Below are positions 45,699 to 53,307 of a stretch of 53,888 nt of DNA, piece after piece. The notes under the pieces were generated by a model, which made no database searches, had not been told where the DNA came from, and saw nothing but the letters and a program-made list of their open reading frames with translations. Made by a program: the position numbers and the translations under genes. Origin of the DNA: Methanobacteriota archaeon (GTDB lineage: Archaea > Halobacteriota > Methanomicrobia > Methanomicrobiales > Methanospirillaceae). Each line of letters starts with the position of its first letter. Position 1 is the first letter of the stretch. The stretch lies in assembly GCA_029547145.1 (NCBI GenBank), contig JAKPPV010000043.1:1-53888 (forward strand), written 5' to 3'.

Positions 45699-45816
45699 GG
45701 CGGGATAGAGACGACCCGGGAGCGGTTCCACTGGAGACCGGCAGCGTGACCTTTTCCACCGAACGTCTGAACCGGCGGTGCTTCGTCATCGCTCCACCGG
45801 CGGAAAGGGGGTCCGG

Positions 45817-48036
45817 ATGAGGCTTTCCGACCTGCCGGTCCCGGCCGCCCTCGTCGAGCGGTATGCCGCGCGGGGGATCACGGACCTCTACCCACCCCAG
45901 GCGGCCTGCGTGGAGGAGGGGCTCCTCGAGGGGAGGAACCTCCTGGTCTCGATCCCGACCGCCTCGGGCAAGACGCTCGTGGCCGAGCTGGCGATGCACG
46001 CCGCGATCGCGCGCGGGGGCACCTGCCTCTACATCGTCCCCCTCCGCGCCCTCGCCGCCGAGAAGTACGCGGAGTTCTCGGCGGGGGCCCGGGTCGGGAT
46101 CGCGACCGGGGACTACGACCGGCGCGACGAGCACCTGGGCCGGTTCGAGATCGTGGTCGCGACCTCGGAGAAGGTCGACTCGCTCCTCCGGAACCGGACT
46201 CCCTGGCTCGCGGACGTGGCCCTCCTGGTCGTGGACGAGATCCACCTGATCGGTTCCCCCGACCGGGGCGCCACCCTGGAGCTGGTGATCGCGAAGCTCC
46301 GCCGGCTCAACCCGTCGCTCCAGGTGATCGGGCTCTCGGCCACGATCGGGAACCCATCCGCCCTCGCCGGGTGGCTGGACGCGACCCTCGTCGCCTCGGA
46401 CTGGCGCCCGGTCCGGCTCCGTCAGGGGGTCTACTTCCGCGGTCAGATCCGGTTCCACGACGGATGCCGGGAGGTCGATGCGACCGCATCGAAGTCGGAC
46501 GACCTGAACCTCTGCCTGGATACGATCGCGGAGGGGGGGCAGGTCCTGGTCTTCGTCAACTCCCGGCGGAACGCCGAGGGGTTCGCAAAGCGGGCGGCGT
46601 CCGCGATCCGCTCCAAGGACCCGGCGCTCGCCGACCTGGCGCGCCGGATCGCCGACCTGGCGGTCACCGAGCCCGACCGGTCGCTCGCGGCCTGCGTGGC
46701 GCAGGGGGCCGCGTTCCACCACGCGGGCCTGCGGTCGGAGTACCGGGGCCTGGTCGAGGACGGGTTCCGGAGCGGGGCGATCCGGTGCATCGCGGCGACG
46801 CCCACCCTCGCGGCGGGCCTGAACCTCCCGGCGCGCCGGGTGGTGGTCCGCGACTGCTTCCGGTTCGCCGGGGGGCAGGGGATGGTCCCGATCCCGGTCC
46901 AGGAGTACCACCAGATGGCCGGGCGGGCGGGCCGGCCCCACCTGGACCCGTACGGGGAGGCGGTGCTGATCGCGAGGTCCGATGAGGCGATCGACGAGCT
47001 CTTCGCGCGCTACATCGACGCCCCCCCGGAGCCGATCACCTCGCACTGCGGGGACCCGGGGGTGCTCCCGGGCCACGTCCTCTCCCTCGTCGCAACCCGG
47101 TTCGCCCGGACGCGGGAGGAGCTCGCCGCCTTCATGGCGACGACCTTCTACGGCCACACCCACCGGGACCCTTCCGCGCTGGAGCCGTCGATCGACGAGT
47201 CGCTCCTCTTTTTGCTCGACGCCGAGATGATCTCGGACCTCTCGGGGCGGTTCGAGCCGACCGACTACGGGAGCCTGGTCTCGCGCCTCTACGTCCATCC
47301 CCTGACGGCGGAGGCGATCACGCACGCCCTCCTCGAGGCGGAGGCGTTCTCGGACGTCGGCCTCCTCCAGGTCCTCGCATCCACGCCGGACATGCCGGCG
47401 CTCTACGTGAAGGCCCGGGACATGCAGGGGCTCTCCCGGTTCGCGTACGAACGCGAGGAGGAGCTCTGGATGGAGTTCCCCTGGGAGAGCCAGGAGTCCT
47501 TCTTCCGTGCGCTCAAGACCGCCCTTCTGCTGAACGACTACATCAGTGAGGCGTCGGAGGAGACGATCTGCGAGCGGTACGAGGTCGCCCCGGGCGACAT
47601 CCACTCGACGGTCACCAACATCTCGTGGCTGGTCCACGCGGCGACCCGCCTGGCGCGGATGTTCCGGCCCGAGTTCGAACGGGAGGCGGCGGACCTGGAA
47701 CTCTGCGTCGCCCACGGGGTCCGGCGGGAGCTCCTCCCCCTGGTCCGGCTCCGGGGGATCGGCCGGGTCCGCGCCCGCCGCCTCTTCACGAACGGGCTTG
47801 TGGACCCCGAGGCCGTACGGCGGGCCGGGCGGGACGAGGTCGCGCGGATCCTGGGCAGGGGGATCGCGGACCAGGTCTTCGCCCAGCTCGGAGAGGAGGG
47901 CCGTACCGCCGCCGATCCCGGTGCGCGCGACGGTGCCGGTCCCCGGGGGGCCGGGACGGAAAAAGAGACCCGCGCGACGGGAGCGGAGCGGCCAAAGCCG
48001 GGTCCGCGCCAGGCATCGCTTCACCAGTTCGAGTGA
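45817..48036 (+). CDS. hel308: Ski2-like DNA helicase Hel308/Hjm
   Basis: 739 aa from MRLSDLPVPAAL... Walker A TASGKT, DEIH box. Winged-helix, ratchet and C-terminal HhH domains. Confidence 0.9.
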   Translation: MRLSDLPVPAALVERYAARGITDLYPPQAACVEEGLLEGRNLLVSIPTASGKTLVAELAMHAAIARGGTCLYIVPLRALAAEKYAEFSAGARVGIATGDYDRRDEHLGRFEIVVATSEKVDSLLRNRTPWLADVALLVVDEIHLIGSPDRGATLELVIAKLRRLNPSLQVIGLSATIGNPSALAGWLDATLVASDWRPVRLRQGVYFRGQIRFHDGCREVDATASKSDDLNLCLDTIAEGGQVLVFVNSRRNAEGFAKRAASAIRSKDPALADLARRIADLAVTEPDRSLAACVAQGAAFHHAGLRSEYRGLVEDGFRSGAIRCIAATPTLAAGLNLPARRVVVRDCFRFAGGQGMVPIPVQEYHQMAGRAGRPHLDPYGEAVLIARSDEAIDELFARYIDAPPEPITSHCGDPGVLPGHVLSLVATRFARTREELAAFMATTFYGHTHRDPSALEPSIDESLLFLLDAEMISDLSGRFEPTDYGSLVSRLYVHPLTAEAITHALLEAEAFSDVGLLQVLASTPDMPALYVKARDMQGLSRFAYEREEELWMEFPWESQESFFRALKTALLLNDYISEASEETICERYEVAPGDIHSTVTNISWLVHAATRLARMFRPEFEREAADLELCVAHGVRRELLPLVRLRGIGRVRARRLFTNGLVDPEAVRRAGRDEVARILGRGIADQVFAQLGEEGRTAADPGARDGAGPRGAGTEKETRATGAERPKPGPRQASLHQFE

Positions 48037-48042
48037 TCCATT

Positions 48043-48546
48043 ATGGAGTTCCAGATTCGGTACGGGACCGCCCGGGTCGATGACCCCGATCGGTTCCTGG
48101 CAGCGGTCCGGGAGATCGCGGCGGCGACGGGGACGCGGATCGTGCTCTTCGACGCGGACCGGATGGCCGGCCAGGAGCATGTGCGCTCCGCCCTCCGCCA
48201 TGCGGTCCGCTCCTTTGAGCGAAGAGAGATGATCGCCCGGAACCTCGAGATGGAGGCCCTGCTCTACGCATCGGGGTCGCGGCAGACCCGGGTCGGCAGG
48301 ACCTTCGGGCTCCATGCGGGCCTGAACCGGTCCTACATCGCCGTATCGGAGCCGGTCGGGAGGGCCTGGGAGGAGCTCGGACGGCTTGTCCGGTTCGTGC
48401 CCGAGCCGGAGGGACACGACCCGGGACGGCGAGAACGGCTCTGCGACCTCTTCGGGATCACCCCGGAGGAGCTGGGGGCGGTCGGGGAGGACCGCCTCGG
48501 GGAGCTGGTGCTCGAGCGGGTCGCCCTGCTCGATGCGAACCGGTGA
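48043..48546 (+). CDS. cgi121: KEOPS complex subunit Cgi121-like
   Basis: 167 aa. Central MIARNLEMEALLYASGSRQ segment typical of Cgi121. Follows hel308 with a 6-nt gap. Confidence 0.55.
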   Translation: MEFQIRYGTARVDDPDRFLAAVREIAAATGTRIVLFDADRMAGQEHVRSALRHAVRSFERREMIARNLEMEALLYASGSRQTRVGRTFGLHAGLNRSYIAVSEPVGRAWEELGRLVRFVPEPEGHDPGRRERLCDLFGITPEELGAVGEDRLGELVLERVALLDANR

Positions 48547-48568
48547 CGCGGGCGGACGGACGGACCGA

Positions 48569-49057
48569 TCACCGGTTCGCGTGGGTCAGGATGTGGCCGA
48601 TCTCCGGGAGGATCAGCTCGTCGAGGGCGAGGCGTGCCGCCCCCGTCGACCCGGGGATGCAGAAGACCGCCGCACCCGCGATGATGCCGGCGGAGGCGCG
48701 CGAGAGCATCGCCGCCCGTCCGATCTCCGCGAAGCTCAGGGACCGGAAGAGCTCCCCGAACCCGTCGATCGTCTTCTCGTAGAGCGGGACGACCGCCTCG
48801 ATCGTCCCGTCGTCGTGCGTCAGGCCCGTCCCCCCCGAGAGGACGACGCAGTTGGACGACTCCAGCGCGGCAAGCACCGCGCGGCGGATGGAGAGGCGTG
48901 CGTCGGGGACGATCGCCCGGTACGTGACCCGGTGTCCTGCGGCCTCAAAACGTTCCCGGATGAGCGCCCCGCTCCTATCGGTCACCTCCGTGCGGGTCGA
49001 GGAGACCGTGATCACCCCCGCCCGGACCTCCACCGGTTCCCGGTGCGTCGGATCCAT
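48569..49057 (-). CDS. moaB: MoaB/MogA-family molybdenum cofactor biosynthesis protein
   Basis: 162 aa from MDPTHREPVEVRAGVITVSSTRT... and SGGTGLTHDDGT signature. The ORF-track 5' extension runs into the origin region. Confidence 0.75.
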   Translation of the reverse strand: MDPTHREPVEVRAGVITVSSTRTEVTDRSGALIRERFEAAGHRVTYRAIVPDARLSIRRAVLAALESSNCVVLSGGTGLTHDDGTIEAVVPLYEKTIDGFGELFRSLSFAEIGRAAMLSRASAGIIAGAAVFCIPGSTGAARLALDELILPEIGHILTHANR

Positions 49058-49204
49058 GGGGGATCGGTGGTCTCCGATCGGTGATGAAGGTTCCATCCGG
49101 GAGGACGGGGCGGGCACCGACCGACGGGTTCCCCATGACGGGTTGAAACGGTATTCTCCCCCTTCCGTTTTGCCATCCGGGACGCCTGAGGGGGACCCCT
49201 TTAT

Positions 49205-49226
49205 TTCCAGTGGAACGCGGTGGGGG
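49205..49226 (+). promoter_or_regulatory. Origin recognition box (ORB) 1
   Basis: TTTCCAGTGGAACgcgGTGGGGG, the canonical TCCAGTGGAA core plus G-string. Confidence 0.55.
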
Positions 49227-49435
49227 AAGACGGTGGGGGGACCGTCACCCGCCGGCGGGATGGAGAGACGGGGACCCACGGGGACGGGGCGTGATGAAAA
49301 AAAGACCAGTTAGGCGACGTTCTGGTTGATTGAACGGTACATCGCCGGTATGTATCAGCCCGGATCTCCATCCTCCCTGAAGTCCGATCCACCACGAAGA
49401 GGGTGATTCTGACCGCCTGGAGAGGCGATTTGATG

Positions 49436-49738
49436 GGATTCCACTCGCATTCACGGGGTCAGAAACACCCACGGGAGATGTTCCACTCGCAGTCAAAGGG
49501 GTCAGATACACTCAATAGAGGCGTTCCACTCGCAGTCAAAGGGGTCAGAAACACCCAAGGGAGGGGTTCCACTCGCAATCAAAGGGGTCAGAAACACCCA
49601 AGGGAGGGGTTCCACTCACAGTCAAAAGGGTTAGATACACCCAAGGGAGGCGTTCTACTCGCATCAACAGGGGGTCAGATACATACACGGGAGGTGTTTC
49701 ACTCGCATTCAAAGGGATCGGATACCGGAGTCGGACGA
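49436..49738 (+). repeat. Seven tandem 43-bp direct repeats (consensus GTTCCACTCGCAGTCAAAGGGGTCAGAAACACCCAAGGGAGGG), head-to-tail ORB-like units
   Basis: Unit starts at ~49437, 49480, 49523, 49566, 49609, 49652, 49696 (period 43-44). Each unit has GTTCCAC..AAAGGGGT resembling ORB half-sites. No unique spacers, so this is not CRISPR. Confidence 0.75.
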
Positions 49739-49879
49739 TCTTTGTGTTCTTCCGTGTCCTCCGATCCGGTATGACCATCCCACCCGATCGGGTTCTGTCC
49801 CACCGGTTCTTCACGATGGGGATCGGATCGAACTTCCGGATCCCTGTTCCTTCGCTCGTGTCTCTGTCCCTGATCGGAT

Positions 49880-49932
49880 CATGTTTTTCTAGTACGAATG
49901 CAATACGTACCAAATGCTCGACTTTTTTTTCC
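49880..49932 (+). promoter_or_regulatory. AT-rich candidate duplex unwinding element (DUE) of oriC
   Basis: tttttctagtacgaatgcaatacgtaccaaatgctcgactttttttttcc, ~30% GC in a 70% GC genome. Bracketed by the ORB-like array and ORB2. Confidence 0.5.
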
Positions 49933-49965
49933 AAGAGGAGAGGATCCTCATCCTCGCCTCCACGA

Positions 49966-49992
49966 GTTCCACAGGAAACAAAGGGGTGGGGG
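49966..49992 (+). promoter_or_regulatory. ORB 2
   Basis: GTTCCACAGGAAACAAAGGGGTGGGGG. Confidence 0.55.
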
Positions 49993-50115
49993 TCCCCCTC
50001 CGCACCCGCACCCGCACCCGCACCGTACTCTTTTCTGCACGACGGATCTCTTCCGGCGGGTTCGACAGGACGCCGGATCGGATCGCGTGACCGGCGATCA
50101 CCGCACGGTTGCGAT

Positions 50116-50138
50116 CTCCAGTGGAAATCAAGGGGTCC
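50116..50138 (+). promoter_or_regulatory. ORB 3
   Basis: CTCCAGTGGAAATCAAGGGGTCC. Confidence 0.6.
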
Positions 50139-50194
50139 GCATCTCTGCACCGGTTATTGGAAAAGATCGCCTCCTTGAGATGGCACAGGAGAAG

Positions 50195-50217
50195 CTCCAC
50201 TGGAAATGTAGGGGTTC
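50195..50217 (+). promoter_or_regulatory. ORB 4
   Basis: CTCCACTGGAAATGTAGGGGTTC. A further mini-ORB TTCCAGTG lies at ~50276, just before the orc1 ATG. Confidence 0.6.
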
Positions 50218-50281
50218 ACCGGACCCCGATTCCCGCGCTGGCACACCTTAATAGACTCCGAATGCACATGTACAACTTCCA

Positions 50282-51586
50282 GTGCACATGACCCAGGACC
50301 CCCTGCCCACGGAGAACCCCTCCCTCGGTCTCTTCAAGAAGTATCTGACCGAGCATGCGCGGATCTTCAGGAACCGGGAGGTGCTGCGCCATTCGTACCG
50401 TCCACAGATTCTACCCCACCGGATGCCCCAGATCAACGAGATCGCCTCGATCCTTGCCCCCTCCCTCCGGAACGAGACCCCGTCCAACATCCTGATCTAC
50501 GGAAAGACCGGCACGGGCAAGACCGCGTGCGTCCGGTACGTCGGGAGCGAGCTCGAATCGGCCTCGACCCAGACCTCGCTCTGCACGGTGGTGCACATCA
50601 ACTGCGAGGTGATCGACACCCAGTACCGGGTGCTCGCGCAGATCGCCAAGGAGATCGAGCACCCGGAGGAGATGTCGTCCGACAAGCTCCGACCCCACAT
50701 CCCGATGACCGGCTGGCCGACCGATCAGGTCTACCTCGAGCTGATAAACCAGCTCGATGCGCGGGGCGGCGTGCTCGTGATCGTGCTCGACGAGATCGAC
50801 AAGCTCGTAAAAAAGAGCGGGGACGACACCCTCTATAGCCTGACCCGGATCAACTCGGACCTGAAGTCCTCCAAGGTCTGCATCATCGGGATCTCGAACG
50901 ACCTCTCCTTCAAGGACTTCCTCGACCCCCGGGTCCTCTCCTCGCTCTCCGAGGAGGAGATCGTCTTTCCCCCCTACAACGCCCCGCAGCTCTGCGACAT
51001 CCTCCAGCAGCGGGCGGAGCAGGCGTTCATGGTGGACACCCTGGAGGAGGGGGTGATCCCGCTCTGCGCGGCCCTTGCGGCGCAGGAGCACGGCGATGCC
51101 CGCCGGGCCCTCGACCTCCTCCGGATCTCGGGAGAACTCGCCGAGCGCGAGTCCGCCCACTCGGTCACGGAACGCCACGTCAAGATGGCCCAGGCGAAGA
51201 TCGAGACCGACTCGATGATCGAGTGCATCTCCACCCTGCCGACCCAGTCGAAGGTCGTGCTCTACTCGATGATCCTGCTCGAGCAGCTCGGACAGGCGAT
51301 CTTCACCTCGGGCGAGGTCTGCCGGGTCTACCAGGAGGTGGCGGCAGCGCTCGACCTGGACGTCCTGACCAACCGGCGGATCACCGATCTTATCAGCGAG
51401 CTGAACATGCTCGGGGTGATCAATACCCGTGTCGTCTCCCGCGGGCGCTATGGGCGGACCAAGGAGATGTGGTTCGACGCGAACTCGGGCAAGATCCAGG
51501 AGGTCATCGAGAAGGACCCGCGGTTGAACGAACAGGGGCTCGCCCAGATGGACAGGACCTGGATCAAGAAGACCCTCCGGTGGTGA
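50282..51586 (+). CDS. orc1: Orc1/Cdc6 replication initiator (AAA+ ATPase plus winged helix)
   Basis: 434 aa. Walker A GKTGTGKT, Walker B VLVIVLDEID. C-terminal wH domain. Positioned directly downstream of ORB/DUE elements. Confidence 0.9.
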   Translation: MHMTQDPLPTENPSLGLFKKYLTEHARIFRNREVLRHSYRPQILPHRMPQINEIASILAPSLRNETPSNILIYGKTGTGKTACVRYVGSELESASTQTSLCTVVHINCEVIDTQYRVLAQIAKEIEHPEEMSSDKLRPHIPMTGWPTDQVYLELINQLDARGGVLVIVLDEIDKLVKKSGDDTLYSLTRINSDLKSSKVCIIGISNDLSFKDFLDPRVLSSLSEEEIVFPPYNAPQLCDILQQRAEQAFMVDTLEEGVIPLCAALAAQEHGDARRALDLLRISGELAERESAHSVTERHVKMAQAKIETDSMIECISTLPTQSKVVLYSMILLEQLGQAIFTSGEVCRVYQEVAAALDLDVLTNRRITDLISELNMLGVINTRVVSRGRYGRTKEMWFDANSGKIQEVIEKDPRLNEQGLAQMDRTWIKKTLRW

Positions 51587-51594
51587 AGGGAATC

Positions 51595-52089
51595 ATGGAC
51601 GCAACCGATACTGCACTCGTACGCCTGCTCGAAGAGAACAGCCGCATCCCGGCGACGGAACTCGCCGCAATGCTCTCGATCCCGGCCGAAGAGGTCGAGG
51701 AACGGATCCGCGCCCTCCAGGCGGAGGGCATCATCCGCCGTTTCACCGCGGTCGTGGACCGGGCCCGCTCCGGAGAGGCGGAGGTCTCGGCGATCATCGA
51801 GCTGAAGGTCTCACCCGAGCGCGATCACGGCTACGACCGGCTGGCGGAGCGGATCGCCCGGTTCGACGAGGTCCGGTCGGTCCGGCTGATCACCGGTACC
51901 TACGACCTCCACGTCCTGGTGACGGGGCGGGACATGCAGGAGATCGCCCGGTTCGTCTCCGAGCATATCGCCCCGATGGAACGGATCCGCGAGACCGCGA
52001 CGCACATCATCATGAAGTCGTACAAGGAGAACGGGGCGCTCATGGTCGGGCGCGACGGTGGCGGCGACCGGCAGCCGTTCTCGTTCTGA
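51595..52089 (+). CDS. Lrp/AsnC-family transcriptional regulator
   Basis: 164 aa from MDATDTALVRLLEENSRIPATELAAMLSIPAEEVEERIRALQAEGII (HTH), followed by a RAM domain. The ORF-track 5' extension overlaps orc1 and was trimmed. Confidence 0.8.
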   Translation: MDATDTALVRLLEENSRIPATELAAMLSIPAEEVEERIRALQAEGIIRRFTAVVDRARSGEAEVSAIIELKVSPERDHGYDRLAERIARFDEVRSVRLITGTYDLHVLVTGRDMQEIARFVSEHIAPMERIRETATHIIMKSYKENGALMVGRDGGGDRQPFSF

Positions 52090-52104
52090 GCGGAGGGCCG
52101 GACG

Positions 52105-53307
52105 ATGCGCGACCACGTCTCACGGGCGGCACGGACGATCCCTCCGTCGGGGATCCGGCGGTTCTTCGACCTGGTACAGACCATGGACGACGTGATCAGC
52201 CTGGGCGTCGGGGAGCCCGACTTCTCGACGCCGTGGAAGGCGATCGATGCCTGCATGGTTGCCCTCGAGCAGGGCCAGACCTCGTATACCTCGAACCGGG
52301 GCATGCCGGCCCTCCGGGAACGGATTGCGGACGACCTCGCACGCGACTACGGGCTCTGCTACGACCCCGAGACCGAGATGATCATCACCACCGGCGTCTC
52401 CGAGGGTCTCGACATCGCGATCCGGGCGGTGACGGACCCGGGGGACGAGGTGCTGATCGCCCAGCCGTCGTACGTCAGCTACGCCCCCTGCGTCACCCTT
52501 GCGGGCGGCGTCCCGGTGCCCGTCCCGTGCCTGGAGCGGGACCGGTTCCGCCTGACCGCCGGGCAGCTGATGGAGCGGGTGACACCGAGGACGAAGGCGC
52601 TCGTGATCAACTTCCCGAACAACCCGACGGGGGCCGTCATGACCGCGTCCGACCTCCGGGAGGTCGCGGATGTGGTGGAGGACCACGACCTGGTCCTCCT
52701 CTCGGACGAGGTCTACGCGGAGCTGAGCTACGAGCAGCCCCACGTCCCCGCGGCGACGATCGGCGCCCTGCGGGAGCGGACGATCACCCTGAACGGGTTC
52801 TCGAAGGCCTACGCGATGACCGGGTGGCGGATCGGGTACCTCTGCGCCCCGCCGGCGCTCGCGGACGCCGCGCTGAAGATCCACCAGTACGTGATGCTCT
52901 GCGCCCCGAGCATGGGCCAGGTGGCGGCGCTCGCGGCGCTCCGCTCGGCCCGGGCCGAGAAGGACGCGATGGTGGAGGCCTATCGCCTCCGCCGGAACCT
53001 CTTCGTCGAGGGGCTGAACCGGGCGGGGCTCCCGTGCCACCTCCCGGAGGGGGCGTTCTACGCGTTCCCGTCGGTCGCCCCGACCGGGCTCTCCGACGTC
53101 GCCTTCGCCGAGCAGCTCCTCGCCGAGGAGCACGTCGCGGTCGTCCCGGGCTCGGTCTTCGGCGAGGGCGGTGCCGGGCACCTCCGGTGTGCCTACGCGG
53201 TCTCCCGCGAGGACCTGGTCGAGGCGGTCAACCGGATCGAGCGGTTCGTCTCGTCGCTCACGGACCGCCCGTCACAGGCGGTCGGGGTCCGGCAGCGGGC
53301 CACCTGA
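52105..53307 (+). CDS. PLP-dependent aminotransferase, class I (aspartate aminotransferase-like)
   Basis: 400 aa. Internal motifs GEPDF, NPTG and SKAYAMTGWRIGY (PLP lysine in the SKAY context). Confidence 0.85.
   Translation: MRDHVSRAARTIPPSGIRRFFDLVQTMDDVISLGVGEPDFSTPWKAIDACMVALEQGQTSYTSNRGMPALRERIADDLARDYGLCYDPETEMIITTGVSEGLDIAIRAVTDPGDEVLIAQPSYVSYAPCVTLAGGVPVPVPCLERDRFRLTAGQLMERVTPRTKALVINFPNNPTGAVMTASDLREVADVVEDHDLVLLSDEVYAELSYEQPHVPAATIGALRERTITLNGFSKAYAMTGWRIGYLCAPPALADAALKIHQYVMLCAPSMGQVAALAALRSARAEKDAMVEAYRLRRNLFVEGLNRAGLPCHLPEGAFYAFPSVAPTGLSDVAFAEQLLAEEHVAVVPGSVFGEGGAGHLRCAYAVSREDLVEAVNRIERFVSSLTDRPSQAVGVRQRAT

Follow-up and report, generated by a model that had tools for sequence, protein, structure and literature searches.

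An ORB-derived tandem array of variable copy number in the predicted replication origin of an uncultured Methanosphaerula-related methanogen

Introduction

The intergenic region upstream of the orc1/cdc6 initiator gene in an uncultured methanogen raises the question of whether a tandem array of degenerate initiator-binding boxes, lying inside a predicted replication origin, is a working part of that origin or a repeat that has grown within it. A preliminary description of this locus proposed a chromosomal origin with four canonical ORBs and an AT-rich DNA unwinding element (DUE), considered it atypical with all ORBs in the same orientation, and reported a perfect head-to-tail array of seven 43-bp units, each a degenerate ORB. 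We analyzed the locus within the whole 53,888-nucleotide stretch of DNA that contains it (hereafter, the window), and compared it with another strain of the same species (L083), the nearest species (L001, 95% Orc1 identity), and further members of the family Methanoregulaceae.

Genomic setting and organization of the predicted origin

The region 49058-50287 is well supported as the predicted chromosomal replication origin next to orc1 in an uncultured methanogen related to Methanosphaerula (Methanoregulaceae, ~70% GC). It comprises the 1230-bp intergenic region directly upstream of orc1/cdc6, the product of which is 87% identical to the ORC1-type protein of Methanosphaerula palustris, and it is bordered on the other side by a MoaB/Mog-type gene that is also called as 162 aa on identical contigs. 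The neighborhood of these two genes is kept as far as M. palustris, and an AsnC/Lrp regulator gene is located just downstream of orc1. The finished chromosome of M. palustris (CP001338.1) has orc1 at bases 409-1704 and is numbered from within the corresponding intergenic region. The GC skew of the window is locally noisy and uninformative, because the window ends only 3.6 kb past the origin. A search of the whole window against Rfam at the gathering threshold returned tRNA only. The genes and core elements of the locus are as follows.

48569-49057, minus strand: MoaB/Mog-type molybdopterin-binding gene, 162 aa (Pfam MoCF_biosynth, 2e-28); left border of the origin intergenic region
49191-49216, minus strand: ORB1, canonical, opposite in orientation to ORB2-4 (minus-strand sequence GTTCCACTGGAAATAAAGGGGTCCCC; exact pattern match at 49196-49214; 38.5 bits)
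49878-49937, no strand: AT-rich DUE, the AT maximum of the intergenic region (core TTTTTCTAGTAC...TACCAAATGCTCGACTTTTTTTT), ~50 bp upstream of ORB2
49966-49991, plus strand: ORB2 (GTTCCACAGGAAACAAAGGGGTGGGG; exact pattern match; 35.8 bits)
50000-50024, no strand: (CCGCAC) x 4.2 microsatellite found by TRF, the second polymorphic repeat of the origin
50115-50140, plus strand: ORB3 (TCTCCAGTGGAAATCAAGGGGTCCGC; exact pattern match; 33.9 bits)
50194-50219, plus strand: ORB4 (GCTCCACTGGAAATGTAGGGGTTCAC; exact pattern match; 26.2 bits)
50246-50257, plus strand: CACCTTAATAGA, TATA-like box ~30-35 bp upstream of the orc1 start, unchanged in the window, L083, and L001
50288-51586, plus strand: orc1/cdc6 initiator gene, 432 aa (Pfam Cdc6_C, 2.3e-28; Cdc6_lid, 3.6e-28; AAA domains)

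The pattern TCCASWGGAAANNNRGGGG has four exact matches in the whole 53.9-kb window, all of them within 49196-50214, where 0.25 would be expected by chance. The weight-matrix scores of the four ORBs range from 26 to 38 bits; in a matrix scan of the whole window, the only other sites reaching at least 14 bits are units 2-4 of the array. These matches, the AT maximum, and the layout conserved in relatives bear out the earlier placement of an origin with four canonical ORBs and a DUE upstream of orc1/cdc6. The claim of a uniform ORB orientation is, however, wrong: ORB1 lies on the minus strand, so that an inverted pair, ORB1(-) and ORB2(+), brackets the AT-rich DUE. Because ORB1 is inverted, the layout is the canonical ORB(-)/DUE/ORB(+), with minus-strand ORBs preceding plus-strand ORBs in 67 of 67 informative family loci, and to call the origin atypical was a misreading. 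The predicted origin core is thus of ordinary archaeal design, a well-supported but routine oriC prediction that offers conceptually nothing new.

This layout recurs in about 70 genomes of the Methanoregulaceae, and each of the close relatives has four canonical ORBs and no more. ORB1 is conserved in L083 and, together with the other three boxes at fixed offsets, in L001, L002, L004, L005, L096, L099, and L100. Relative to the orc1 start, ORB2 stays between -317 and -330 across all close relatives, and ORB3 and ORB4 lie in relatives at about -172 and -93, respectively. The exception is the distance from ORB1 to the DUE, which is ~660 bp here versus about 150-200 bp in relatives, owing to a lineage-specific spacer that carries the array; the entire intergenic region measures 680-695 bp in relatives.

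The DUE has 62-65% AT in a genome of ~30% AT. Its identity to L083 is 97% and to L001 76%, whereas the adjoining spacer is unalignable; the DUE core can also be aligned in L002, L004, and L005, and is conserved within the clade. The non-ORB motif TACCAAATGCTC of the DUE occurs in 14 of 70 family loci versus 9 of 70 shuffled controls; it was therefore rejected as a family-wide element and is conserved only in the close clade. In L083 the (CCGCAC)n microsatellite has one unit fewer, and the aligned sequence of L001 lacks it. The TATA-like box CACCTTAATAGA, which is among just four A/T runs of at least 6 nt in the intergenic region and has a counterpart, TCTTAATAGA, in M. palustris, is presumably an element of the orc1 promoter.

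Anatomy of the tandem array

The array and its surrounding spacers, which separate ORB1 from the DUE, have the following coordinates.

49217-49437, no strand: left spacer, ORB1 to array; 95% identical to L083 and 45% to L001; lineage-specific, unconstrained
49438-49739, plus strand: 43-bp tandem array of seven units (TRF, unit alignment, weight matrix, strain comparison)
49438-49479: unit u1
49480-49522: unit u2
49523-49565: unit u3
49566-49608: unit u4
49609-49651: unit u5
49652-49695: unit u6
49696-49739: unit u7
49740-49877, no strand: right spacer, array to DUE; 91% identical to L083 and 53% to L001; variable

TRF identified the array, at 49439-49725, as the sole strong tandem repeat of the window (period 43, 6.7 copies, 83% matches, 2% indels, score 360). 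The units follow one another head to tail without spacers, each being composed of an ~26-nt ORB-derived box and an ~17-nt linker; in the absence of spacers, a CRISPR-like array was rejected. Unit lengths from u1 to u7 are 42, 43, 43, 43, 43, 44, and 44 bp, with start-to-start spacings of 42, 43, 43, 43, 43, and 44. Pairwise identity varies between 62% and 98%, with u3 and u4 98% identical and the edge units at 62-76%. Thus, the array is indeed spacer-less, head-to-tail, and of 43-bp period, as originally described, although not perfect. The period of 43 bp corresponds to approximately four helical turns, and proteins bound to successive units would therefore sit on roughly one face of the DNA; such helical phasing is a pattern that a functional array might also show.

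On the weight matrix of family ORBs, for which the shuffled-background maximum is 2.7 bits, units u1 to u7 score 6.6, 15.3, 15.3, 17.4, -2.7, 0.6, and -4.2 bits, respectively. The scores of u2-u4 are weak for ORBs, well above background yet below those of ORB1-4, while u5-u7 have lost near-invariant ORB bases (-4.2 to 0.6 bits). In the unit sequence TCCACTCGC, the dyad TCCA-N-TGGA is broken and the second half-site is gone, and position 11 in u2-u4 is occupied by C, whereas A is present in 99% of 229 family ORBs. The GGGG string is retained in u1-u4 and u6, and the G-string is displaced by +1 nt in u2-u5; removal of one base raises the scores of u2-u4 to 20-25 bits. At 10 of the 13 near-invariant ORB positions the consensus unit carries the expected base; this, together with the scores of u2-u4, sustains the proposal that the array is ORB-derived, as judged by sequence similarity. 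The proposal that every unit is a degenerate ORB holds only for u2-u4. The overall match of the units is not comparable with that of genuine family ORBs, and the array contains three weak initiator-type sites and four non-sites rather than a cluster of good sites. Substitutions among the units, only nine in number, fall four times on the 13 high-information and five times on the 13 low-information positions; with n = 9, they do not appear to avoid ORB-critical positions, which fits neutrality.

Distribution in strains and relatives

Two haplotypes of the species were recovered. Strain L083 encodes an identical Orc1 protein and carries two units versus seven here, the difference being an in-register gap of ~215 bp (5 x 43) between flanks that are 91-99% identical to the window; this copy-number variation is represented by one variant contig, L083. 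Either an expansion or a deletion could have produced the two forms. The seven-unit form is the commoner: it occurs in several samples and in five of the six listed occurrences of the identical Orc1 protein (11 contigs in total).

In 80 species representatives, as far as they had enough upstream sequence, the region ahead of orc1 contained no array. It is absent from the nearest species L001 and from 70 other family origins; L002-L005, L096, L099, and L100 lack it too. Furthermore, a close same-strand pair of ORB-like boxes occurs in 0 of 71 origins, and no single conserved box of the unit type was found in relatives. The ~530-bp array-bearing spacer is itself missing from relatives: identity to L001 is 43-53% over spacer and array but 67-76% over the flanks. 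In blastn searches, the spacer matched L083 only, and neither spacer nor array matched plasmids or phages; the unit pattern gave no match in viral contigs. A mobile-element origin of the spacer and array was accordingly rejected. The unit does not recur elsewhere in the window, and a metagenome scan recovered it from the same species and in two further matches, L088 and L089, which were dismissed as chance occurrences in unrelated low-GC sequence devoid of orc1 and ORBs. According to the preliminary description, a neutral minisatellite would be indicated if close relatives lacked the array or differed in it without phenotype, and on the sequence side this is the distribution observed (two versus seven units within the species, absence in the sister species and 70 further origins).

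Origin and possible role of the array

We propose that the array is probably a minisatellite (VNTR) that arose from an ORB and sits in a dispensable spacer within a genuine oriC. It has no unique spacers, varies in copy number in register, is lineage-specific, and lies in unconstrained surroundings, as is usual for VNTR loci. Counting against this explanation are the clearly non-random ORB-like core of three units, the helical phasing of the period, the prevalence of the seven-unit form, the tolerance of Orc1 for divergent sites, and the precedent of ORB-number-dependent titration in Haloarcula hispanica; in addition, the copy-number variation comes from only two haplotypes and the substitution comparison from nine changes. 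In the proposed scenario, a fast-evolving filler of ~530 bp would have pushed ORB1 away from the DUE in the source lineage; inside this filler, a degenerate ORB with ~17 bp of adjoining sequence would have been amplified head to tail into the 43-bp minisatellite, presumably by replication slippage or unequal recombination. The center of the array may have been homogenized through recent duplication while its edges decay. Since both the two-unit strain and the array-less sister species retain all four ORBs, the array appears to be dispensable for origin function. Because Orc1 contacts few bases specifically and accepts divergent sites (PMC3089459), it could still bind the array, and units u2-u4 probably retain some affinity for it. 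If so, the sole likely activity of the array would be that of a weak, polarity-mismatched Orc1 sink, which is the most that its interpretation as a minisatellite would allow.

The likeliest alternative, although we consider it rather unlikely, is a control function for the array, which would titrate or handcuff Orc1, with low-affinity boxes buffering the free initiator and lowering or tuning the frequency of initiation. The models for this role are the Haloarcula hispanica oriC2D, E. coli datA, and the plasmid iteron arrays P1 incA and F incC, and the difference between two and seven units would represent adaptive tuning. Several features agree with it, namely the scores of u2-u4 far above background, the tolerant recognition by Orc1, the period of about four helical turns, and the precedent of oriC2, which is under negative control by an ORB-rich region with a strength that follows the number of ORBs, a number that varies between species. 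Moreover, the units are oriented wrongly for loading MCM towards the DUE, and a sink thus fits them better than a loader. However, only three of the seven units are credible sites, all with the aberrant C at position 11 and the broken dyad, and u5-u7 have decayed without apparent constraint. No other origin examined has an array, including those of the species representatives with enough upstream sequence and of L096, L099, and L100, and two units accompany the same Orc1 protein in another strain of the species; oriC2D, by contrast, is made up of full ORBs and is essential to its host, neither of which is seen for the array. A related and unlikely possibility is that the array is a young, evolvable device for initiation control, in which tandem low-affinity ORB derivatives of reverse polarity would soak up Orc1 and two to seven copies would tune initiation or ploidy between co-existing strains. 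If true, the array would represent a naturally occurring equivalent, on an archaeal chromosome, of both plasmid iteron control arrays and the Har. hispanica oriC2D, caught in the process of forming.

It is improbable that the units serve another DNA-binding protein, such as a second Orc1/Cdc6 paralog of altered specificity (comparable to the Sulfolobus C2/C3 sites), a nucleoid-associated protein (for instance UBP, which recognizes the ucm motif), or the AsnC/Lrp regulator. In Sulfolobus, non-ORB origin motifs are indeed bound by other factors (PMC12141716, PMC3089459), and the CGCAG change common to most units, along with the co-amplified ~17-bp linker, makes a composite site conceivable. However, the window has no second orc1 paralog able to read the variant box, the array is not conserved and shows no clear constraint, and the confinement of the unit to this species, apart from the two chance matches in public collections, would leave a dedicated protein with no further targets and no conserved site in relatives. 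Transcription of the array, as a repeat-derived small RNA or a promoter stack, is very improbable. Its location in a long intergenic region between divergent genes would be suitable and mechanically called ORFs cross it; nonetheless, Rfam gave no match in 48000-51000 even at E <= 1, and folding was no better than that of shuffled sequences on both strands (z = +0.55 and +0.97), leading us to reject a known or structured RNA. No A/T run in the array exceeds 4 nt, so that there is no TATA box and a promoter array was also rejected; the small-RNA and promoter alternatives of the preliminary description are accordingly unsupported. A coding repeat was rejected since units of 42-44 bp and a strain indel of ~215 bp break any reading frame. 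Least probable of all, to the point of being hardly credible, is that short-read assembly produced the array or its copy number artificially. Some assemblies (L091, L092) do break within the array at window position 49565, but the seven-unit sequence is 100% identical in at least seven independent metagenome assemblies (JGI, ENA, and Logan contigs from different samples), which argues against an artifact, and the divergence among units limits exact repeats to about 55 nt.

The origin prediction is useful for the annotation of this uncultured Methanoregulaceae lineage. The interval between ORB1 and the DUE accommodates ~0.5 kb of unconstrained filler and a repeat of changing size, with the four core ORBs remaining fixed, which suggests that this spacing is flexible in the clade. 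The locus further indicates that initiator-binding boxes can seed minisatellites. Should the array bind Orc1, its two natural alleles, with two and seven units and the same initiator, would provide a ready test of ORB-number-dependent titration outside haloarchaea.

Comparison with known systems

With the canonical archaeal origins (Pyrococcus abyssi oriC, Sulfolobus oriC1, and haloarchaeal oriC1) the locus shares the adjacency to orc1/cdc6, an inverted ORB pair around an AT-rich DUE, and extra ORBs upstream of the initiator promoter. The dyad and G-string of its ORBs fit the euryarchaeal consensus GTTCCAGTGGAAAC-AAA-GGGG (PMC1868953). Its core is no different from these origins, and only the ORB1-DUE distance is unusual.

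Haloarchaeal and Pyrococcus origins, too, often have incomplete ORBs of uneven quality besides the core pair, known as degenerate ORB or mini-ORB repeats; one example is ori-pHV1/4 of H. volcanii, with 13 repeats of which 6 are complete ORBs (PMC1868953). However, those repeats are dispersed and in both orientations, whereas the array described here is a strict 43-bp tandem in one orientation. In P1 incA and F incC, the iteron control arrays of plasmids, and in E. coli datA, initiator sites are likewise repeated directly, close to an origin but not within the minimal unwinding unit, and can titrate or handcuff the initiator. The repeats of these systems, which involve Rep or DnaA initiators, are conserved, of high affinity, and spaced, and they are experimentally required for copy-number control. 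The likeness of the array to them would be one of arrangement, direct initiator-box repeats near an origin, with differences in initiator family, conservation, affinity, and spacing.

For the Har. hispanica oriC2D, titration dependent on ORB number has been shown experimentally, and in this essential element 11 full ORBs are scattered across 722 bp on the downstream side of the initiator gene (PMC3936714). As in the methanogen, many initiator boxes lie beside an ori-cdc6 unit without forming an origin themselves; the number of oriC2D boxes varies between taxa and tunes origin efficiency. The boxes in our array are instead degenerate, head-to-tail, located between ORB1 and the DUE, strain-variable, and partly decayed.

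With prokaryotic minisatellites (VNTR) the array shares head-to-tail units, in-register polymorphism between strains, a homogenized center with decayed edges, and absence in the sister species. What distinguishes it from them is that its seed unit derives from a functional type of initiator-binding site and that the locus lies inside a replication origin.

Organization of the Predicted orc1-Associated Replication Origin

The GC content of the window is ~70% and is lower (0.58 for 49001-50000) around the 1230-bp intergenic region 49058-50287. The pattern TCCASWGGAAANNNRGGGG matches perfectly at just four sites in the 53.9 kb of the window, against 0.25 expected, all of them in this region. The genes and origin elements are as follows:

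48569-49057, minus strand, MoaB/Mog-type gene left of the intergenic region (MoCF_biosynth, 2e-28)
49196-49214, minus strand, ORB1 match
49878-49937, AT-rich maximum (DNA unwinding element, DUE) between ORB1(-) and ORB2(+), 62-65% AT in 40-bp windows
49968-49986, plus strand, ORB2 match
50117-50135, plus strand, ORB3 match
50196-50214, plus strand, ORB4 match
50288-51586, plus strand, Orc1/Cdc6 gene right of the intergenic region (Cdc6_C 2.3e-28, Cdc6_lid 3.6e-28, AAA domains)

The canonical ORBs and the AT-rich DUE that the preliminary description had placed upstream of orc1/cdc6 are thus confirmed; its single orientation for all ORBs is wrong, since ORB1 reads on the minus strand and ORB2-4 read on the plus strand. 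The elements follow the canonical ORB(-)/DUE/ORB(+) order, a layout regarded as the minimal archaeal origin and present in 67% of predicted Cdc6-type oriCs (bioRxiv 10.64898/2026.08.15.744077). Judged by the sequence-level features that define the known Cdc6/ORB-type oriC class, all of which are present, the predicted origin is a member of this class. The numbering of the finished Methanosphaerula palustris chromosome starts in the homologous intergenic region, which slightly corroborates the origin call.

ORB1 is a palindromic dyad with G-runs at both sides (GGGGGACCCCTTTATTTCCAGTGGAACGCGGTGGGGGAAGACGGTGGGGGG, 49188-49240), and therefore also gives a 2-mismatch match on the plus strand; the right-hand G-runs are kept in L083, a strain contig encoding the same Orc1 protein, but not in L001, the nearest species (95% Orc1 identity). 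A DUE core, TTTTTCTAGTAC...ATA..TACCAAATGCTC...TTTTTT, located ~50 bp upstream of ORB2, is conserved in the window (49883-49930), L083, and L001 (3593-3640), and is recognisable in the related loci L002, L004, and L005 and in M. palustris (L096, about 2590-2650). One possibility is a non-ORB origin motif like the Sulfolobus ucm; family-wide, the core does not occur significantly more often than in shuffled sequence (14/70 loci vs 9/70 shuffled). The ORB half-site ACTTCCAGTGCACATG, which overlaps the orc1 start codon (50275-50290), does not vary between the window, L083, and L001, and M. palustris has ATTCCAGTGAAC as its counterpart; Orc1 might regulate its own gene through this site, at the start of transcription or translation.

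Comparison with Related Origins

An Orc1-anchored scan of species-representative genomes yielded 80 loci, all from Methanomicrobiales and mostly from Methanoregulaceae, five of which have 89-95% Orc1 identity and the remainder ~77-79%; the closest cultured relative is M. palustris (87%). Exactly four ORBs are found in each of L001, L002, L004, L005, L096 (M. palustris-type), L099, and L100, at about -560(-), -320(+), -172(+), and -93(+) from the orc1 start, with the one exception of ORB1 in L001, at -947; the intergenic region is 680-695 bp in L096, L099, and L100, the loci measured. ORB2 to ORB4 of the window occupy the same offsets as in relatives (-321, -172, and -93), and ORB1 is at -1096. 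The distance between ORB1 and the DUE has grown by ~530 bp, and the tandem array lies inside this addition. This spacer is effectively unalignable with that of L001 (43-53% identity, vs 67-76% for the flanking origin elements); it has blastn matches within the same species only, and neither spacer nor array matched any plasmid, phage, or viral contig.

No ORB-like tandem array was found by Tandem Repeats Finder upstream of orc1 in any of the 80 loci with enough upstream sequence. In a weight-matrix scan, the 71 origins covered averaged 3.2 ORB-like matches each, with no same-strand pairs 15-70 bp apart. Large non-ORB tandem repeats occur 1.5-2.4 kb upstream of orc1 in other Methanoregulaceae/Methanolinea (L014, 1576-2410; L022, 2235-2360; L056, 1710-2336), for instance 16-17-bp units GGTTGATCGTCTGTTCT x 50.6 and GATCGTCTATTCTGGGT x 7.4, and a 167-bp unit x 3.8.

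Gene order around the origin is conserved from the window lineage to Methanosphaerula (45778-53307; L096, L099, L100): Hel308-like helicase (Helicase_dom4_arc), a 167-169-aa protein (CGI-121 family in M. palustris), MoaB (-), oriC, orc1, AsnC/Lrp regulator, and class I/II aminotransferase. The window genome has ~70% GC, with GC3 of 0.82-0.96 in real genes, and the M. palustris origin region has 37% GC at 87% Orc1 identity, a very large difference in composition for related lineages.

Structure and Copy Number of the 43-bp Array

Tandem Repeats Finder detected a single array at 49439-49725 (period 43, 6.7 copies, score 360), the only substantial tandem repeat of the window; the next score, 63, is a 22-bp sub-period within the array, and the best score outside it is 62. 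Its units are:

u1, 49438-49479, 42 nt
u2, 49480-49522, 43 nt
u3, 49523-49565, 43 nt
u4, 49566-49608, 43 nt
u5, 49609-49651, 43 nt
u6, 49652-49695, 44 nt
u7, 49696-49739, 44 nt, 3' half already flanking sequence

Units u3 and u4 are 98% identical and u2-u5 among themselves 87-89%, while identity to the other units is 76-84% for u1, 71-76% for u6, and 62-67% for u7: the centre is homogenised and the edges have decayed, as is typical of tandem arrays. The array had been called perfect and head-to-tail; the head-to-tail, spacer-less arrangement is real, the perfection is not (83% matches, 2% indels). An assembly artefact is ruled out because contigs of at least seven independent assemblies (JGI, ENA, Logan) agree at 100% over the seven units.

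An identical 432-aa Orc1 is encoded on 11 contigs (exact-protein lookup), and five of the six listed carry the same 7-unit array. L083 (Ga0116255_10013382), with flanks 91-99% identical, has two units only, the first orthologous to u1 and the second resembling u2 in its 5' 30 nt (29/30) and u7 at its 3' end. The two alleles are separated by a clean in-register indel of ~215 bp (5 x 43), explicable by expansion or deletion alike. Array absence or variation without phenotype in close relatives had been proposed as the mark of a neutral minisatellite; the sequence part of this holds, as the array is absent from relatives and varies between two and seven units, the variation being known from the one variant haplotype recovered (L083).

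A second polymorphic repeat in the origin is the (CCGCAC) x 4.2 microsatellite directly downstream of ORB2 (50000-50024), one unit shorter in L083 (about 929-946) and absent from L001. Several independent short-read assemblies stop at one and the same point, about 49093-49107, from either side (L084, L085, and L086 begin at 49093-49096; L093, L094, and L095 finish at 49105-49107). These shared ends suggest that the assembly graph branches a little upstream of the MoaB start, and hence that strains differ there; they are distinct from a break within the array at 49565.

Relationship of the Units to ORBs

Units were scored with a 26-position weight matrix built from 229 ORBs upstream of orc1 in 74 Methanoregulaceae loci. 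The canonical boxes of the window score 38.5, 35.8, 33.9, and 26.2 bits, and u1 to u7 score 6.6, 15.3, 15.3, 17.4, -2.7, 0.6, and -4.2 bits, against a top score of 2.7 bits among ~118,000 shuffled positions. The consensus unit GTTCCACTCGCAGTCAAAGGGGTCAG matches 10 of the 13 near-invariant ORB positions; at position 11 it has C in place of A (a base that 0.2% of family ORBs have there), which breaks the dyad from TCCA-N-TGGA to TCCACTCGC, and the G-string is displaced by one base. Sequence similarity thus clearly points to ORB-derived units, of which u2-u4 only are predicted weak ORBs; invariant bases are lost in u5-u7 (-4.2 to 0.6 bits), so that the earlier view of each unit as a degenerate ORB applies to descent and to u2-u4. 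Inter-unit substitutions fall on high- and low-information ORB positions alike (4 on 13 and 5 on 13), and so give no indication that Orc1 binding is under purifying selection, with n at only 9.

Interpretation of the Array

We consider it rather likely, on comparative sequence grounds, that this is a conventional orc1-adjacent oriC whose spacer carries an ORB-derived 43-bp VNTR. Within a genuine oriC with a non-essential, fast-evolving spacer, a degenerate ORB copy plus a ~17 bp linker would have been the seed, with slippage or unequal recombination amplifying it. Neither the 2-unit strain nor the array-less sister species lacks any of the four canonical ORBs or the DUE, which implies that the array would be dispensable. 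The main rival, a low-affinity Orc1 sink, seems unlikely to us: Orc1 recognition tolerates variation and makes few base-specific contacts (Kd 0.39 uM for mORB vs 4.7 uM for random DNA; PMC3089459), and the ORB-rich oriC2D of Haloarcula hispanica (11 ORBs in 722 bp) represses oriC2 to a degree that depends on ORB number (PMC3936714), but the array would offer only three weak sites, its remaining units decay without constraint, and it is not conserved. The 2- and 7-unit alleles form a natural pair for testing Orc1 titration. In all 67 of the 67 family loci with both ORB orientations, minus-strand ORBs lie upstream of all plus-strand ORBs; the units, located on the ORB1 side of the DUE, are oriented like ORB2-4, and this polarity, opposite to that of ORB1, would argue against extra MCM-loading sites on the ORB1 side.

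Other readings (ALTERNATIVES tested for the array: RNA, promoter, coding, a second Orc1 paralogue, and the unit elsewhere) fared as follows. The small RNA and promoter array offered in the preliminary description are both rejected: the array has no Rfam match even at E <= 1 and shows no folding advantage over shuffled sequence for either strand (z = +0.55 and +0.97), and it contains no A/T run >4 nt and therefore no TATA box. Coding is excluded by the unit lengths of 42-44 nt and the ~215-bp indel between strains. The window encodes no second Orc1 paralogue and has no array unit elsewhere; a metagenome-wide unit pattern scan found only the same species and two chance matches in unrelated sequence.

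Comparison with Known Systems

A strict spacer-less, head-to-tail, strain-polymorphic ORB-derived array was not found in the literature searched or in 71 related origins, and the array is probably a neutral, lineage-specific curiosity. Tandem repeats are frequent enough in oriCs to serve as a screening aid (bioRxiv 10.64898/2026.08.15.744077), and degenerate ORB-like repeats in multiple copies are common at archaeal origins (PMC1868953). The window origin resembles H. volcanii ori-pHV1/4, where 6 of the 13 repeats are complete ORBs (PMC1868953), in having several degenerate ORB-like repeats; what appears to be new here is the combination of this known ORB redundancy with a VNTR.
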